Positions 42,543 through 50,158 of a stretch of 64,000 bases of DNA are shown in pieces. Each line of letters opens with the position of its first letter. Within the stretch, counting starts at the first letter, position 1. The notes below the pieces were generated by a model, which was not told the origin of the DNA, made no database searches, and was given only the letters and a program-made list of their open reading frames with translations. The translations under genes and the position numbers were made by a program. The DNA is taken from contig CAVSGP010000009.1 in assembly GCA_963727505.1 (NCBI GenBank), positions 64,001 through 128,000 on the forward strand. Reading direction: 5' to 3'. This stretch comes from an uncultured Trueperaceae bacterium (GTDB lineage: Bacteria; Deinococcota; Deinococci; Deinococcales; Trueperaceae).

Positions 42543-42824
42543 TCAGGCGGGAGCGGCGTACTCCAGCTGGTCCACGAGACGGTCCAGGGCGTCGAAACCG
42601 TGCACGCGCGCGATCTCGAGCGGGCTGCGATTCTTGAGCTCGGCGTCGGGCGTGTTCAGGAAACGCCGGATGCGCGCCTCGTCGTGGTCGAAGACGGACG
42701 TCAGGCGCCGCACCACGGACGGAGCGAGATGCGCACTCTCGCGCACCCGCTTCGCCGGCGCCAGATAGCGCAAGAGTCTTCGCTGCAGGCGCTGTTCAGC
42801 TTCGGGCCGATCGATCTGGTCCAT
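42543..42824 (-). CDS. Xre/MbcA/ParS antitoxin C-terminal-like (DUF2384) protein
   Basis: VF...ARIRRFLNTPDAELKNRSPLE...G...L...LEY pattern; GGAGG RBS. Confidence 0.7.
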   Translation of the reverse strand: MDQIDRPEAEQRLQRRLLRYLAPAKRVRESAHLAPSVVRRLTSVFDHDEARIRRFLNTPDAELKNRSPLEIARVHGFDALDRLVDQLEYAAPA

Positions 42825-43033
42825 CGAACTCGCCTCCACATGACGAGGCTAGGGGGCGGCCGTGAGTTCGCCATGACATGACGACGAGAGCGTCCTCATG
42901 CCGTCCATGGCGGCCCGTCCGGGCGTTCGCGGTTCGTTCACACAGCCTCCCCCCAACCTTCCCACGGCAGGTCCTACGCTGCAGGAGACATCGGGGCCCT
43001 CGAACCGAACCCCGGCCCCCGAAGGAGACCACC

Positions 43034-43683: not shown

Positions 43684-44478
43684 TCATGGGACCGAAGAAG
43701 AGTCGCCGCCGATGCGCAGGTCAGGTAGGTCGGCGGCCAGCCGACGCGCGTAGGCGGGCTCGTGGTCCCAGCACGAGGCAACCTCCCAGGCGCGTAACGC
43801 CGCTTCCGCGGCCTCCCAGCCCGGGCGCGGGCGGCCGCCGAGCGCGATCGACAACGCCACCTCATCGAGGATCGACGCGTCCACGCGGGCCTCGTCCCAA
43901 TCGACCAGTGCCACGTTGCCTTCCGGCGTCACCAGGATGTTCTCGCGCTGCAGGTCCCCGTGGACGACCGAGCGCGGAGCGCCGGCGAGACGCGCCCAGG
44001 CGGCCCTGCACGCGTCGGCCACGTCGTGGGGCATGCCGTCGAGCTCGATGTCGCCGGCGCTACGACGTTCGACCATGGCGGCGCTCGATGCGAAGCCGGG
44101 GCGCTGGGTCGTCCCTCGGGTGGCGTCGTGGAAACCGCGCAGGAGAGTCCGCAGGCGGGCGAGGCTGCGGGCGTCGGCGGGACGGCCGTCGATGAAGCGT
44201 TCCAAGGTGATTCCGTCCTCGACCAGGTACCCGGCCCGGCTGCGCAGCGGTTCCGGGGTCACCAGCCCGATCTCGCGAGCCTGGACGTGCACCGCCTCGA
44301 GCCAGCTCAGCGCCTCGGCGCTGCGTCGCGTCCCTTTGGCGACGAGCGTCTCGCCGGCACGTTCGACCAGCAGGACGGGGTTGCGGTTCCCTCCCGGCAG
44401 CTCGCGCACGACGCGGAGCTCGCCCCAGGCCGTCGTGCGCTCGAGTCGTTCCTGCAAGCTGCGCGCCGAGAACGCCAC
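43684..44478 (-). CDS. APH/choline-kinase-like phosphotransferase (start uncertain)
   Basis: LPGGNRN, VVHGDLQRENIL and LVDWDE. Confidence 0.85.
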   Translation of the reverse strand: MAFSARSLQERLERTTAWGELRVVRELPGGNRNPVLLVERAGETLVAKGTRRSAEALSWLEAVHVQAREIGLVTPEPLRSRAGYLVEDGITLERFIDGRPADARSLARLRTLLRGFHDATRGTTQRPGFASSAAMVERRSAGDIELDGMPHDVADACRAAWARLAGAPRSVVHGDLQRENILVTPEGNVALVDWDEARVDASILDEVALSIALGGRPRPGWEAAEAALRAWEVASCWDHEPAYARRLAADLPDLRIGGDSSSVP

Positions 44479-44531
44479 GCGTGCCCGGCGTTCCTTCGGT
44501 TCGTCGCCCCCCACCACGTTCCTCGGTCGTC

Positions 44532-45332
44532 CTACTCGTTGGGCGGCGAGCCCGGTGGCACGGGGATTCGGCGCCGATGTTCGATGCGCATCGACGTGCC
44601 GGCGAACGCGGCCGCGTCGGCGTCGAGCGGGATGCTGGTTGACGGCGTGCCGATGCCGAACCCCTGAAGGTGGGTGACGCCCAGGTCCTTGAGTTGCTGA
44701 CGGACGGTCGGATCCTCGACGCCCTCCGCCACCACGATGCCGAAGCGGTCGAGAGCGTCCGCCACCAGATCGATGGCGCGCTGCTGGTAGGTGCCTCCGA
44801 GGAGTGCGGGCAGCAGGCTTCGATCGAGCTTGACGCCGTCGATCGGTGCGCCCTTCCGGAAGCGGTGGTCGAGGTCGTCGAAGGTCACGTCGTCGAGAAG
44901 GACGATCGCGCAATGGTCGCGCACGCCCTCGAGCCCCTGCCAGTAGGCGTCGAGATTGCGGATCTGCTGCTCGGTGAGCTCGACGACGAGGCGCTGCTGC
45001 AGCTCGGGTTTCAGGCTGCGGAGGGCGTGCACGGCAGCTGGTTGCGTCACCTGGGCGGGACTCAGGTTGATGCTCAGGCGCGCCCCGGGCGAAGCGAGCA
45101 GCGCTTCCGCGGCGCGCGCCACGGTGAAGCGCGTGAAGGCCTCGCTGCGGGTGGGGGCAAGCCAGTAGGGCAGGACGTCCAAGGGTCCACGTACCGTGCC
45201 GTCCGGAAGCCGCCAGCGCACCAGCGCCTCGTACCAATGCACGATGCCGGCCGCTGCCGATTCGATCGGCTGGAACTGATAGTGGAGGTCCTGCAGGCGG
45301 GGGTAGGGAACGTGGATGGGGTCGTACTTCAT
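44532..45332 (-). CDS. Stand-alone EAL-domain protein
   Basis: FQPI, YEALVRW, SINLS, VELTE, LDD, VKLDRS, VAEGVE and LQGF; loop 6 is DDVTFD instead of DDFGTG. Confidence 0.88.
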   Translation of the reverse strand: MKYDPIHVPYPRLQDLHYQFQPIESAAAGIVHWYEALVRWRLPDGTVRGPLDVLPYWLAPTRSEAFTRFTVARAAEALLASPGARLSINLSPAQVTQPAAVHALRSLKPELQQRLVVELTEQQIRNLDAYWQGLEGVRDHCAIVLLDDVTFDDLDHRFRKGAPIDGVKLDRSLLPALLGGTYQQRAIDLVADALDRFGIVVAEGVEDPTVRQQLKDLGVTHLQGFGIGTPSTSIPLDADAAAFAGTSMRIEHRRRIPVPPGSPPNE

Positions 45333-45434
45333 GACGGTGGCGATCCCGCCTCCCCCAGGGGGCGACGCGCCCCGCGAGCGAAGGCCGCAGGGCGCGTAAC
45401 AGGTCGATGGGGCGCTACGCCCCGTGCCGCACGC

Positions 45435-45578
45435 TCAGCCCGCGTCGTAGCTTCCGGACTGACTCCCCGAGTCGGCCAGCGTCATGCTCTGGTGAGCGAT
45501 GGTCACGCCCCCGGCGGCCGAGCCGAGCAGGACGAGTGCGAGAATAGTGCTGCGGATGATCTTCTTGAGCGTGGGCAC
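45435..45578 (-). CDS. 47-aa secreted peptide precursor MPTLKKIIRSTILALVLLGSAAGGVTIAHQSMTLADSGSQSGSYDAG (candidate signalling peptide)
   Basis: Translated by hand; perfect AAGGAGG RBS 5 nt before GTG; basic N-region, hydrophobic H-region and short polar tail; own -10 (TAGGCT 45653-45658). Confidence 0.8.
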   Translation of the reverse strand: MPTLKKIIRSTILALVLLGSAAGGVTIAHQSMTLADSGSQSGSYDAG

Positions 45579-45652
45579 CGGGTCCTCCTTGGGTTCCTTC
45601 TTGCTGGTTTCCCCTTTGGGTCTCCTCTGTCTCTGACCCTCTTGCTGCTTGG

Positions 45653-45737
45653 AGCCTACGGGTGGGGGCGCTTCAACCCCGCTTCAACCACGCGGGCTCG
45701 GGCTGAAGCGGGGGTGGAGCGCCCCCCGGCCTACCGT
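45653..45737. promoter_or_regulatory. Mirror-symmetric divergent promoter with 11-bp-period direct repeats
   Basis: Minus strand: GGTTGAAGC-gg-GGTTGAAGC-N11-TAGGCT. Plus strand: GGCTGAAGC-gg-GGGTGGAGC-N11-TACCGT. Confidence 0.75.
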
Positions 45738-45761
45738 GCGGGTCGAGAAGAGGAGGCAGGC

Positions 45762-45953
45762 ATGACGAGAGAAGAAGCCCTCCAACGGCTGGATGGAACG
45801 TGGTCGTTCGATGTCGTCGGGGACCAGGTTCTGATTCGAGAGTTGGGTCTGCTGTCGGCCGTCGACGCGATCCGTCGCGAGCGGTCGGCGGCGGGCCAGC
45901 GCCCGTTCGTCTCCACGGCGTCGTTCGAGGGGGCGGCCGCCTCCGGCGATTGA
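45762..45953 (+). CDS. Small hypothetical protein (63 aa)
   Basis: AGGAGG RBS; MTREEALQRLDGTWSFDVVGDQVLIRELGLL...; lies behind the plus-strand -10. Confidence 0.6.
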   Translation: MTREEALQRLDGTWSFDVVGDQVLIRELGLLSAVDAIRRERSAAGQRPFVSTASFEGAAASGD

Positions 45954-46023
45954 GCGCGACCGTCGACCGCAGCTCCAGGCGTGGTCGCGCGGGAGCTCGC
46001 GCCTATGCCGGTATGCTCATGAT

Positions 46024-48495
46024 GTGTGGCTGAAGCGTCAGCTCGATCGCATCGTCGCAAGCGAGCGGCCGGTGGCGTTGCTCGGCGGCGAGCCGTACGG
46101 CGTTCCCTTCCTCATCGACGCGCTCCGTGAGCGGGAACGGCTAGCCTGGGTCACGTTGTCCCGGCGCGCGCGCGACGACGTGGTGGCACAGGGCAACGCC
46201 CTGGCGAGCGCGTTGAATCAGCAGCTCGGCGAGTCGCTCCTGCCGCACGCCTTGCCCTACCGGGCACACCTGCAGTCGTTGCGCCAGTACCGCCACGATC
46301 TTCAACCGCTGTGGATCGCCGTGTCCGGCGCCGATGTCGCGCCCGCCTTCGCGGGTGAGCTGGTCCAGCTCGCCGACTTCGGCTACCGCGTGCTGCTGGG
46401 GTTCGAGACGGACGTGCCGCCGGAGATGGACGGGCTCGATCGGTGCCTGGTGCTGGGCGTGCCCGAACTCACCGTGACCCGCGAGGACGCAGCGATGATC
46501 GCTCCCGGTGGCCTCTCTGCCGGTGAGCTCGACGCCGTTCAACGCGAGACCGGAGGGCGGTTCACGGACCTCCTGACGGTCACCCACGAACGGGCCCAGC
46601 TCCCACGCTTCCCGATCCCGACGCCGCTCGGGCCGGTGCTGCCGCAGCGCCGAGCCGAAGCCGTCGACGTTCCACTGGCGGTGCTGGGGCTCCAGCGCGA
46701 GGGTCGCCCGGTCGACGCTCTCGAGCTGGCCGTGCGGGCCGCGCCCGAGATGGTGGAGGACCTGCTGCGCACGGCGGGCCCCGCCTACCAGGACGAGGGC
46801 GCGTTGCCCCGACTGCACCTGCTCCTGTCGAGCCTGCCGCAGCCCTACCGGTCTCTCGAGCGCGTGCTGGAGTGGCGTTTCCTGGCCTCCTTCGCGACCA
46901 ACGAGTGGCGCGCCCTGGTCGAGGAGGTCGACGCCCACCTGGAGGCGTTCACGGCGCCCGAGCTTCGTGCACGGCGCGCGGGCACGCTGGCGCGCGAGGC
47001 CGGGTTCCCGCTGGCGGAGGCTGCCATGCGGGCGCGGCGCACGCCGCTGACGCTCTGGCAGTACGGGCGCATGCATCCCGACGCGCAACGGGCGGTGGAG
47101 GTGCTCAAGGAGAGCGTGCGCCTGGCGGAACAGGCCGGCACGCCGTACGAGGTGGCACGCAGCGCCGGCGTCCTGGCCGACCGCCTGGTGCACCTGGGGC
47201 AGTTCCAACGGGGCCGCTCCTGGGCGGAGTACGCCCTGCAGGTGTTCGACCAGAACGGGCTGCGAGACGGCGCACGCCGGCTGACGCTGTTCAACAACCT
47301 GGCCGTGGCCCGCATCCTCAGCGGGGACCTGGCAGGGCTGCGGCGTGGGCTCGAGGACGGGCAGGCCGCCATCGAAGGGAGCCTTCCCGAGCTCGCCGCG
47401 ACCTTCCGCGGCACGCTCGCCTGGTTCGAGCAGGCTAGCGGTCGACCGGAAGAGGCGCTCGAGCTGATGCGGGCCACTTTCGAGGGCAGCCCACGCCGGT
47501 TCCGGACGCGCTTCGGCTACCAGTTCGTGCGCTGCCTCAACGAGTTCGGACGCTACGAGGAGGCGGCCCGGGTCGCGGACGTCGCCGCGGAGCTCAGCGG
47601 CGACGCCTCGGCGCATGCCCGTCAGCTCGGGGCGCTTGCCCAGGGCATGGTGGGCGCGGTCAAGGGCGACGCGACCGCGGTCGACGACCTGCTCGGTGTC
47701 GTGATCGACGGTTCCCTCCCCGCCGAGCAGCGCCTGACGGCGGCGCTCCACGGCCTGCTGGTCGACCCCGCGGGCTGGCACCGCTACCCACCCGACGTCG
47801 TCGAAGTGCTCCGGGGCCTCGACGGCGGCGCGCTGCGCGTGCTCAGCGGGCCCGCGTCGGTCTTCCAGGGCGTCTGGGACACCCTCGTACCGGTGCGCGC
47901 GGAGCTGCGGCTGGAGTTCCTCGGGCGCGTCTCCTGCCGCCTGGGCGGCAAGGAGATCGGGCTGGCGCCGCGCATGGCGGAGACCGCGCTGGCGCTGGCG
48001 CTCCACCCCGACGGGATGACGCGCGAGGAGCTCAACGCCTTCCTGGCGCCCGACGGCACCGCCGGGCTGTCACCGAGCGGTATGCGGGCCACGCTCACCC
48101 GCTTGCGGGCCCTGCTACCGGTCAGCGACGCGCCCTACCGGTTCGCCGTGGCGTACACGGCCGACATCCTGCAGGCGCGGCGTCACCTTCTGGAGAAGCG
48201 CGTTCGCGAGGCTGTCACGCTGCTGCGTGGGCCGCTCCTTCCCGAGAGCGAGGCGCTCGGCGTCGAGGAGCAGCGCTGGATCCTGGAGGAGGAGCTCCGG
48301 CAGGCCGTCCTCGAGGCTGCGGATCCGGACGCCCTCTTCGACCTCGCCGACCGGCTTCAGGACGACGTGCAGCTGTGGGAAGCCGCGGTCGGCGCGCTCC
48401 CGCCGGGCGATCCTCGCAGGGCCCTGGCGCGCGCGCGTCTGCACCGCGGCCAGAGCGAGCAGGTTCCGCCGGCGCGAGGCCCGGCCCAGGCCTGA
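46024..48495 (+). CDS. Large regulator: degenerate MalT-like NTPase N-terminus, TPR-like middle, C-terminal OmpR/SARP-type wHTH with BTAD-like tail
   Basis: VALLGGEPYGVP...LAWVTLS (Walker A lost); helical repeats such as LFNNLAVARILSGD; LRLEFLG...LALHPDGMTREEL...MRATLTRLR; TATGCT 6 nt before GTG. Confidence 0.75.
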   Translation: MWLKRQLDRIVASERPVALLGGEPYGVPFLIDALRERERLAWVTLSRRARDDVVAQGNALASALNQQLGESLLPHALPYRAHLQSLRQYRHDLQPLWIAVSGADVAPAFAGELVQLADFGYRVLLGFETDVPPEMDGLDRCLVLGVPELTVTREDAAMIAPGGLSAGELDAVQRETGGRFTDLLTVTHERAQLPRFPIPTPLGPVLPQRRAEAVDVPLAVLGLQREGRPVDALELAVRAAPEMVEDLLRTAGPAYQDEGALPRLHLLLSSLPQPYRSLERVLEWRFLASFATNEWRALVEEVDAHLEAFTAPELRARRAGTLAREAGFPLAEAAMRARRTPLTLWQYGRMHPDAQRAVEVLKESVRLAEQAGTPYEVARSAGVLADRLVHLGQFQRGRSWAEYALQVFDQNGLRDGARRLTLFNNLAVARILSGDLAGLRRGLEDGQAAIEGSLPELAATFRGTLAWFEQASGRPEEALELMRATFEGSPRRFRTRFGYQFVRCLNEFGRYEEAARVADVAAELSGDASAHARQLGALAQGMVGAVKGDATAVDDLLGVVIDGSLPAEQRLTAALHGLLVDPAGWHRYPPDVVEVLRGLDGGALRVLSGPASVFQGVWDTLVPVRAELRLEFLGRVSCRLGGKEIGLAPRMAETALALALHPDGMTREELNAFLAPDGTAGLSPSGMRATLTRLRALLPVSDAPYRFAVAYTADILQARRHLLEKRVREAVTLLRGPLLPESEALGVEEQRWILEEELRQAVLEAADPDALFDLADRLQDDVQLWEAAVGALPPGDPRRALARARLHRGQSEQVPPARGPAQA

Positions 48496-48640: not shown

Positions 48641-50158
48641 ATGAGAAAGTCGCTCTTACTCCTCTTAGCCGGGGTCGCGCTGTCGTTCGGCGCTGCGTTC
48701 GCCGCCAGCGGCACGGTCAGCGTTGCGATGTCCGGGAACGCCATCACACTCAACCCCGGGGACACCAACGGCAACCTCGATTTCTCCATCCAGCGCCCCA
48801 TCTACGAAGGCCTGGTCGGCTTCGACAAGGACGGCAAGCTCGTCCCCGAGCTGGCTACCTCCTGGACGGCCAGCTCGGACGCGACGGTGTTCACGTTCGA
48901 TCTGCGCAAGGGTGTGACCTTCCAGGACGGCACGCCGTTCAACGCCGAGGCCGTAAAGACCTACTTCGACTGGGTCATCGATCCCGCCAACCATTTCGTG
49001 CGCGAGAGCCTGTACAACGTCATCAAGTCGATCGACGTGGTGTCGGAGTACCAGGTCAAGTTCACGCTCTCCAAGCCCTTCGGCGCGATGCTCTTCACAT
49101 TCGCGCACCCTGCCGGGCGCATCGTCAGTCCTGCTGCCATCAAGAAGTACGGCAAGGACGTGGCGAAGCACCCCGTAGGTACCGGTCCCTTCGAGTTCGT
49201 GAGCTGGACGCCGGGCCAGAAGGTGGTCCTGAAGGCCAACCCCAGCTACTGGGGTGACGCGCCGCAGGTCGCCAACCTGCAGTTCCTGTTCGTGCCCAAC
49301 GCCGCGACGCGCGTGGCTATGCTGCAGAGCGGCGAGGCGCAGTTCATCGAGGACCTCCCGCCGCAGCTCGTCGACCCCATCAAGGCCGACAGCAACCTGA
49401 CGGTCAGCGCCCAGCCGAGCATCTACGTGCGCTACATGGCGATGAACACGCAGGCCAAGCCGTTCAACGATCAGCGCGTGCGTCAGGCGCTGAACTACGC
49501 GGTGGACAAGAAGACCATCGTCGACGTCATCACCAAGGGCTACGGCACCGCGTTGACGGCTCCGATCGCCGAGCAGGTGACGGGCTACGCCAAGCAGACG
49601 CCGTACGCCTACAATCCCGAGAAGGCCAAGCAGCTGCTGGCCGAGGCCGGCTATCCCAACGGCTTCACCTTCACCATCGACTCGCTCAACAGCACCGGCT
49701 ACCAGCAGATCGATCAGGTGCTGCAGCAGATGTTCGCGAAGGTGGGCGTGACCGCCAAGATCAACCCGATGGAGAGCGGCACGTTCTCCAGCACGGTGTT
49801 CGCGCCGTTCGACAAGACCACCCTCCAGGCAGTCGTCATCGGCTGGTCCCCGTCGACCGGTGACGCCGACTGGGGCCTGCGCCCGCTGTTCGACAAGGCC
49901 TCCTGGCCGCCCGATCTGTACAACCTGGCGTTCTACGACAACCCCAACGTCAACAAGCTGATCGCCGACGGCCTCAGCACGGCCAATCAGGACATCCGCA
50001 ACCAGGCCTATGCCTCCGCCGAGAAGACCATCTGGAACGATGCTCCCTGGGTCTTCCTGTACAGCCCCTACAACATCGCGGGTATCTCCGCGAAGTTGAA
50101 CGGCGTCTTCTACATGCCCGACGGCACGGTGGACGCCCGGGCGGCCAGCCTGCAGTAA
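48641..50158 (+). CDS. Peptide/glutathione ABC substrate-binding protein (GsiB/DppA-like)
   Basis: Sec signal; LRKGVTFQDGTPFNA, PVGTGPF and GWSPSTGDADW; GGAGG RBS. Confidence 0.93.
   Translation: MRKSLLLLLAGVALSFGAAFAASGTVSVAMSGNAITLNPGDTNGNLDFSIQRPIYEGLVGFDKDGKLVPELATSWTASSDATVFTFDLRKGVTFQDGTPFNAEAVKTYFDWVIDPANHFVRESLYNVIKSIDVVSEYQVKFTLSKPFGAMLFTFAHPAGRIVSPAAIKKYGKDVAKHPVGTGPFEFVSWTPGQKVVLKANPSYWGDAPQVANLQFLFVPNAATRVAMLQSGEAQFIEDLPPQLVDPIKADSNLTVSAQPSIYVRYMAMNTQAKPFNDQRVRQALNYAVDKKTIVDVITKGYGTALTAPIAEQVTGYAKQTPYAYNPEKAKQLLAEAGYPNGFTFTIDSLNSTGYQQIDQVLQQMFAKVGVTAKINPMESGTFSSTVFAPFDKTTLQAVVIGWSPSTGDADWGLRPLFDKASWPPDLYNLAFYDNPNVNKLIADGLSTANQDIRNQAYASAEKTIWNDAPWVFLYSPYNIAGISAKLNGVFYMPDGTVDARAASLQ

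Follow-up and report, generated by a model that had tools for sequence, protein, structure and literature searches.

Positions 45653-45737 of a 64,000-nucleotide stretch of DNA from an uncultured Trueperaceae bacterium (the whole stretch is called the window here) raise the question of why 85 bp between two divergent small genes should carry the same arrangement of repeats twice, once on each strand and each time at the same distance from a -10-like hexamer. An earlier interpretation made from the letters alone (the sequence-only reading) had proposed that an adjacent protein with a winged helix-turn-helix (wHTH) domain activates from this element both a peptide gene on the left and a 63-aa open reading frame (ORF), here called p63, on the right. 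Our analysis favors, with a probability of about 0.72, a reading in which the 85-bp element consists of back-to-back activator-dependent promoters and forms the core of an autoinduced peptide circuit. On computational grounds the sequence-only proposal is thus supported, in a refined form.

On reading the interval 45300-46100, all coordinates proposed for the element matched. Two copies of the 9-mer GGTTGAAGC are located on the minus strand (45670-45678 and 45681-45689), and the plus strand carries the 9-mers GGCTGAAGC (45701-45709) and GGGTGGAGC (45712-45720). Both 9-mer pairs have an 11-bp period and lie 11 nt from their own TAnnnT, as expected of the mirror geometry that the sequence-only reading had described. 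Its box unit, on the other hand, needed to be redrawn: position and period stood, whereas the core conserved among orthologues is the 7-mer TGAAGCG, for which the gap to the -10 is 10 nt. With the heptamer as the unit, the element is laid out as follows:

45653-45658, minus strand: -10 element TAGGCT of the peptide-facing promoter, with a predicted start near 45646
45669-45675, minus strand: promoter-proximal box TGAAGCG of the left arm
45680-45686, minus strand: promoter-distal box TGAAGCG of the left arm, at an 11-bp period
45687-45703, no strand: 17-nt inter-arm spacer between the innermost heptamers, its sequence unconserved
45704-45710, plus strand: promoter-distal box TGAAGCG of the right arm
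45715-45721, plus strand: promoter-proximal box TGGAGCG of the right arm, with one mismatch
45732-45737, plus strand: -10 element TACCGT of the p63-facing promoter, with a predicted start near 45744

A repeat search returned the whole as one inverted repeat with arms of 26 nt (45664-45689 and 45701-45726) that are 88% complementary and 11 nt apart, and a promoter scan of 45300-46100 found no sigma-70-type -35/-10 pair.

The arrangement is restricted to this locus. Allowing at most one mismatch, the double 9-mer box occurs at just these two places in the 3,261,185-base genome, and the composite pattern TGRAGCG-N4-TGRAGCG-N10-TANNNT occurs twice in the window against 0.00 expected from 100 shuffles. 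Across the whole genome there are 31 heptamer pairs with up to two mismatches; only the two at the locus have one mismatch or fewer, and only these two are followed by TAnnnT after 10 nt. Single matches to GGNTGRAGC are common (22 in the window compared to 7.35 expected) and carry meaning only where they are clustered. Since the composite pattern is unique in the genome, it is neither a chance pattern nor a dispersed repeat, and the genome scan for the regulon that the sequence-only reading had envisaged yielded no full site beyond the two at the element. A single GGCTGAAGC at 46028-46036 (plus strand) was rejected as a regulon site, as it lies within codons 2-5 (W-L-K-R) of the regulator gene; it is retained in close orthologues, for which coding constraint is the simplest cause.

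We then compared the footprint of the element across orthologous Trueperaceae loci. Wherever p63 had a match, the 170 nt upstream of it were taken; 51 sequences remained once redundancy was removed, and 50 of them had sufficient length for analysis. Loci without a tblastn match to p63 or cut by a contig end (L005, L024-L033, L063, L067, L069 and L077) were left out, exact duplicates (L034-L040, L048, L049 and L056, which repeat L004-L016) were dropped, and so was L058, which offered just 23 nt of upstream sequence. An arm was scored when two heptamers with no more than two mismatches in total stood at an 11-bp period and were followed by a 10-nt gap and TAnnnT. The right, p63-side arm was found in 37 of the 50 loci, the left, peptide-side arm in 40, and both in 34. 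The distance from the box pair to TAnnnT was exactly 10 nt in 77 of 83 pairs and 9 nt in three more. As the sequence-only reading stated for this locus, it is the peptide gene that the perfect boxes face, and this is true throughout the family: two perfect heptamers are seen in 36 of 40 left arms but in only 2 of 37 right arms, and right arms are degenerate family-wide. The perfect boxes on the peptide side predict that the peptide promoter fires first. Furthermore, the inter-arm length falls into two classes (23 loci at 16-18 nt, 15 loci at 27-29 nt), and the sequence in between is unconserved. These two classes differ by about one helical turn, and thus the two promoters keep a fixed rotational relation to each other, a phasing in keeping with a possible assembly of four protomers joined through the NOD-TPR parts of the regulator.

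The candidate regulator is encoded directly to the right of p63:

46024-48495, plus strand: 823-aa regulator with a probable STAND-type NOD and TPR (residues 1-605) and a C-terminal SARP module (residues ~625-815)

The C-terminal OmpR-type wHTH that had been attributed to this protein was recovered both by profile and by model, and is followed by a BTAD-like helical domain. A profile built from 29 orthologous C-termini matched at least 30 DNA-binding domains of the OmpR/PhoB family in the PDB, with a best E of 2.3e-4 and every match covering profile positions ~28-103; a single-sequence PDB search with the C-terminus gave only noise. The AF2 (AlphaFold2) model of residues 606-823 has a pLDDT of 88.7, and its top Foldseek match is the AfsR SARP in a transcription initiation complex (8k60_I, E 1.9e-5, TMq 0.63; also 8hvr). 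It matches EmbR as well (2ff4 and 2fez), the alignment to the AfsR SARP and EmbR extending over 227 columns, and the all-helical BTAD directly after the wHTH is seen in the predicted fold. The model of residues 1-605 (pLDDT 92.2) is best matched by a STAND ATPase with TPR (6mfv_A, E 4.3e-7, TMq 0.56); MalT (8bob), lower in the list, and Avs3 are also among the matches. Searches of Pfam and NCBIfam with the whole regulator and with its thirds gave weak TPR matches only, among them TPR_MalT at E 0.0073, which is below the cut-off. The Walker A position reads GGEPYGVP and has no lysine, so that nucleotide binding is doubtful. By these models, the SARP fold of the C-terminus is predicted with good confidence and the regulator is an AfsR-like 'large SARP' with reversed domain order, NOD-TPR-SARP. 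A paralogous NOD-TPR-SARP gene is present elsewhere in the genome (G000:C4:555684-558120, 32-34% identity) in a lower-GC stretch, where it is split in two frames (479 and 353 aa); sister genomes have intact paralogues. Being split and having neither a peptide gene nor boxes upstream, it was discarded as part of the system.

The layout of the boxes resembles class II sites of the PhoB/OmpR type. The pho box of PhoB consists of two 7-bp direct repeats with a 4-bp spacer that substitute for the -35 some 10 bp ahead of the -10, which is the same repeat layout, and the C-terminal profile of the regulator matches wHTH domains of the PhoB family. PhoB itself is a phosphorylated response regulator without BTAD, NOD or TPR, unlike the regulator here. 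The likeness extends to the AfsR/SARP promoters of Streptomyces, such as the afs box of afsS, in which two direct repeats of 11-bp period stand in for the -35 at a fixed distance from the -10. In the excerpted account of AfsR (PMC10936776), SARP targets are direct repeats 11 or 22 bp apart whose 3' repeat lies 8 bp from the -10, and the afs box spans -40 to -19 with two 11-bp repeats. The same excerpt describes an AfsR dimer bound side by side, each protomer contacting the first 8 bp of a repeat, that substitutes for -35 recognition in what is termed 'sigma adaptation' (PMC10936776). The boxes of the locus show this SARP-type target feature of direct repeats at a fixed distance from the -10; if transcription starts 7 nt past the -10, as predicted, the heptamers fall at -40 to -34 and -29 to -23, within the span given for the afs box in that excerpt.

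AfsR also shares with the regulator, as modeled, the combination of an OmpR-type wHTH and BTAD joined to NOD and TPR. The differences are nevertheless considerable. AfsR belongs to Actinomycetota, and the locus to Deinococcota (Trueperaceae); AfsR is ordered SARP-NOD-TPR, whereas the SARP module here is C-terminal rather than N-terminal; and the Walker A region of the regulator lacks the lysine while the Pfam wHTH and BTAD models leave it unmatched. Moreover, the box word is another one, two promoters stand back to back in helical phase, and the genes coupled to the element are those of a small secreted-type peptide and an EAL protein instead of antibiotic clusters.

On this basis we propose the following mechanism. 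Each half of the element, apparently devoid of a usable -35, would present a pair of TGAAGCG heptamers spaced by one helical turn, the proximal one stopping 10 nt short of TAnnnT. Two SARP modules of the 823-aa protein would bind each box pair side by side and replace -35 recognition, much as at the afs box, where AfsR has this role, and four protomers would fill the element. The left promoter, with its near-perfect boxes, would transcribe the gene of a Sec-type propeptide and then, by read-through, an EAL cyclic di-GMP (c-di-GMP) phosphodiesterase gene; the right promoter, with weaker boxes, would transcribe the small p63 gene. The regulator would be kept at a basal level by its own leaderless promoter, and the released C-terminal peptide, ending in D-x-G-COOH, would be the ligand of its TPR. 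Peptide production would thereby feed back on itself (autoinduction), with c-di-GMP turnover as the output.

The same boxes could be operators instead: the SARP-type protein or its four-protomer assembly would cover the -35/spacer region of the two promoters and repress them, and peptide would relieve the repression. Of the alternatives considered this one fares best, and we regard it as unlikely. The boxes do overlap the region that RNA polymerase must occupy, and a looped or tetrameric repressor would likewise fit the way in which the two arms are helically phased. However, neither half has a recognizable -35, so that an unaided promoter would be weak, and the rigid coupling of box and -10 at 10 nt (77/83) fits an activator that replaces the -35 in the manner reported for AfsR in the excerpted account (PMC10936776). 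A fixed register is unnecessary for a repressor site, and the closest folds of the regulator are activators.

The gene on the left of the element encodes a candidate precursor of the peptide signal:

45435-45578, minus strand: 47-aa propeptide gene, with a signal-peptide-like N-terminus and the C-terminal tail ADSGSQSGSYDAG

At the same place in orthologous loci we found 40 small ORFs with a basic and then hydrophobic N-terminus, all of which end in D-x-G; D45 and G47 are invariant, and the C-terminal tail is loosely conserved as A-D-S-x-G-Q-x-G-x-x-D-x-G. In some loci the tail motif (...SxQPG-x-x-D-V-G) is in tandem, with two copies in L059 and L062 and four in L072. Such repetition is expected of a precursor that is cut into several identical signals and suggests a multi-copy pheromone precursor; tandem pheromone propeptides are reported for RRNPPA systems in the excerpted text of PMC11343458. 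Two terminator-like matches (45578-45596) fall within the ribosome-binding site and 5' leader, immediately before the propeptide start codon, and look spurious. The segment GGGTCTCCTCTGTCTCTGACCC (45618-45639), which would be part of the 5' leader of the peptide mRNA, is near-identical in the closest orthologues, L003-L008, though non-coding; the fold of the leader as a whole is not unusual (z -1.06).

We modeled the complex between regulator residues 1-610 and the 47-aa precursor. As a measure of model confidence, it reached an ipSAE of 0.71 compared to 0.00 for the best control, a mark reached by 116 of 157 solved complexes and by 2 of 215 mismatched pairs. The runs shared at least 15% of contacts, and the pLDDT of the partner was 36-38. 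Only peptide residues 43-47 made confident contacts; on the regulator these involved residues 286-287, 290, 295, 317-318, 320-323, 342, 345-346, 349 and 379, an interface that includes the invariant R317, Q346, R349 and R379 and the nearly invariant G320.

This arrangement recalls the RRNPP(A) systems of Bacillota (Rap, Rgg, NprR, PlcR, PrgX and AimR), in which a cytoplasmic TPR receptor is the transcription factor and is encoded beside a small exported propeptide. The proposed logic is alike as well, with the C-terminal part of the propeptide as the signal and its gene activated by the receptor, and in this genus an Opp-like binding protein is encoded next door:

48641-50158, plus strand: gene of a family-5 (Opp/Dpp-like) solute-binding protein, followed by a permease gene; a possible peptide importer

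Pfam and NCBIfam detected neither RRNPP(A) sequence membership nor an N-terminal HTH in the regulator. Unlike the RRNPP(A) proteins with their N-terminal HTH, the regulator has a C-terminal SARP module; its receptor part is, by predicted fold, of the STAND-type NOD-TPR kind, it belongs to another phylum, and the peptide would be recognized, in the model, by its D-x-G-COOH end.

A variant of the circuit would be purely intracellular, with the C-terminus of the unexported pre-peptide binding the TPR, so that the system would report secretion load or peptide accumulation and not cell density. It agrees with the model in that the docked extreme C-terminus is already free in the precursor, and with the importer gene adjoining the locus in one genus only. 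However, two to four tandem copies of the motif make sense only if proteolysis frees several D-x-G-COOH ends, and the conserved signal-peptide-like N-terminus implies export of the propeptide. We consider this variant distinctly unlikely, and an exported signal remains part of the preferred circuit.

Which protein occupies the boxes was addressed by comparing the box word with the predicted recognition helix of the regulator. In all 43 analysable loci with TGAAGCG, the helix reads G-[MLIV]-R-x-x-x-T-R-x-R. The other 7 of the 50 loci lack a TGAAGCG pair and have other helices (LYAHI[KR]RLR, LRSHVSRVR, LRSAVSRLR and LRSHVSHLR). Three of these seven keep the arrangement heptamer-N4-heptamer-N10-TAnnnT with other words, namely TTTCAGC (L014), TTGCAG (L017) and TTCAACG (L021); control sequence totaling 146,142 nt gave a single background match to this generic geometry. 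With 55% and 54% identity to the window protein, L013 and L014 stand at nearly the same distance from it, and of the two only L014 is altered in both helix and box. Taken across lineages, box word and recognition helix appear to change together, which is supportive, not a statistical proof, and it is mainly from this covariation that we infer the 823-aa protein to be the binder of the boxes.

Another OmpR/SARP-type factor could in principle bind the boxes while the 823-aa protein acts elsewhere. Many partial matches to regulator residues ~620-810 are found in other protein families of the order, and receiver-SARP response regulators have been described in Deinococcus (COG3947, for example Deide_19260), which bring a C-terminal SARP-type module to Deinococcota according to the excerpt of PMC3564903. 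These have a CheY-like receiver as input, in contrast to the NOD-TPR here, and that excerpt reports no targets, binding sites or peptide partner for them (PMC3564903). An array of related words elsewhere in the genome (G000:C6:207325-207380, minus strand) would also accommodate such a factor: it holds four boxes at an 11-bp period, TGAAGCG alternating with TGAACCC, upstream of a promoter-like TTGAGT-17-TACAAT and beside a divergent signal-peptide gene, and could be either a second, class-I-like target or another factor's site. Against a foreign binder, the gene order of peptide, element, p63 and regulator is conserved in each of the 9 further genomes searched within the genus and extends to many other genera of the family; the box word switches in exact step with the recognition helix of this regulator (43/43 versus 0/7); and no other full site is found in the genome, which fits a dedicated local regulator. 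We judge another binder to be quite improbable and retain the 823-aa protein in this role.

That the symmetry is a mere nucleic-acid hairpin (terminator, attenuator or cruciform) or a dispersed repeat of the repetitive extragenic palindrome (REP) kind, the escape route left by the sequence-only reading, can be dismissed as very improbable: this copy of the inverted repeat would form a stable fold at the RNA or single-stranded DNA level (-51.6 kcal/mol, z -4.96) and drew sub-threshold Rfam matches to generic hairpin (miRNA precursor) models, but there are just two sites in 3.26 Mb, both at the locus, the element lies upstream of both -10 elements, the 'loop' jumps by 11 nt between ~17 and ~28 nt, only 56 of 152 intra-arm spacer positions are complementary, and among 38 two-arm loci 42 heptamer positions are altered on one side only compared to just 4 altered on both sides with complementarity kept. 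The Rfam matches on the inverted repeat (29.9 bits versus a gathering score of 90) were set aside as generic hairpin matches. Because the changes in the arms are non-compensatory, the hairpin is not under selection, and the symmetry is a by-product of two identical promoters placed back to back.

The remaining features of the locus bear on the inputs and outputs of the two promoters:

44532-45332, minus strand: EAL-domain gene downstream of the propeptide gene (Pfam EAL, E 2.8e-34)
45762-45953, plus strand: p63, a 63-aa ORF with a conserved N-terminal domain of ~40 aa
46012-46017, plus strand: -10 element TATGCT of the regulator, 6 nt before the start codon at 46024, with no Shine-Dalgarno sequence

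In each of the 39 loci for which both genes could be placed, the EAL gene comes after the peptide gene and shares its strand. The gap between them is 35-212 nt and contains no TAnnnT in 33 of the 39, and this linkage suggests that peptide and EAL genes are co-transcribed, the EAL gene probably being the output of the left promoter. The stretch from the peptide stop to the EAL start (45340-45425, minus strand) holds two strong GC-rich hairpins without U-tracts, which are similar across the genus and could be attenuators that set the ratio of peptide to EAL. Directly downstream of the EAL gene is an ORF with an APH-type phosphotransferase fold (43687-44700, minus strand; PF01636, E 6.2e-11), which may belong to the same transcription unit.

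On the right side, the induced gene would be p63. The -10 element before the regulator gene is conserved as TATGCT or TATCCT, and TAnnnT is found at -11 to -13 from the regulator start codon in 47 of 54 orthologues; from these sequences, the regulator probably has its own leaderless, constitutive promoter. In the excerpted Deinococcus deserti study, leaderless mRNAs, which have this layout, make up 60% of transcripts and 94% of start sites are preceded by a -10-like motif, with no general -35 motif found (PMC4007540). The positive loop would run mainly through the peptide gene, and feedback on the regulator itself is uncertain.

Several observations weigh against the proposed circuit. For the SARP assignment, the evidence is a weak profile match together with a predicted fold, and neither wHTH nor BTAD was recognized by Pfam or NCBIfam models, Trans_reg_C and BTAD included, at E up to 10. 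The degenerate right arm escaped detection in 13 of the 50 loci at the threshold used. The covariation of box and helix spans few independent, related lineages, and the divergent loci L019, L020, L022 and L023 failed the strict test for the generic geometry; repeated words are visible in them by eye. The score of the modeled complex expresses model confidence, the fold of the peptide itself is of low certainty (pLDDT below 50), and TPR-peptide complexes are common among solved structures, so that the score may partly reflect likeness to these. A cytoplasmic receptor needs the peptide to be re-imported, and the Opp-like binding protein adjoins the locus only within the genus, which makes it a loose component. 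A GC-rich hairpin and a separate -10 stand between p63 and the regulator gene, and consequently the regulator may not be autoinduced. Finally, p63 has no assigned role: it matched no family in Pfam or NCBIfam, had no usable match in the Atlas, and gave no PDB profile match.

Peptide quorum sensing via cytoplasmic TPR receptors is regarded as characteristic of Bacillota and their phages, and SARP activators as regulators of antibiotic production in actinomycetes; the locus would join TPR peptide signaling and SARP activation in a third phylum. Taking all parts together, it may represent a previously undescribed class of peptide-pheromone quorum sensing in Trueperaceae, independent of RRNPP and outside Bacillota, a joint interpretation that we hold tentatively and rate a little short of an even chance. 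In its full form, a Sec-exported propeptide would be cut to D-x-G-COOH peptides, which would be re-imported and clamped by arginines of the TPR, whereupon four SARP modules would fire two helically phased mirror-image promoters. One promoter would amplify the pheromone and turn on the EAL phosphodiesterase, which would lower c-di-GMP, the weaker one would make p63 and tune the response, and box word and recognition helix would have diversified together into orthogonal 'dialects'. A literature search, with many subscription journals outside its scope, found no description of such a system.

The cis-element is unusually clean: its four boxes and two -10 elements stand at fixed spacings, and the regulon comprises a single locus. 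The hypothesis is therefore directly testable. Moreover, the co-varying pairs of box and helix offer a natural set for studying SARP-DNA specificity, and the element itself could serve high-GC hosts as a compact bidirectional promoter that is inducible by peptide and probably orthogonal. The locus is also a candidate link between cell-cell signaling and c-di-GMP turnover in the radiation- and salt-tolerant Deinococcota, where this regulation is poorly known.

Farther along the minus strand of the window, a 98-aa ORF (42543-42839) carries the C-terminal toxin-binding domain of Xre/MbcA/ParS antitoxins (PF09722, E 1.5e-7) and may be one half of a toxin-antitoxin pair.

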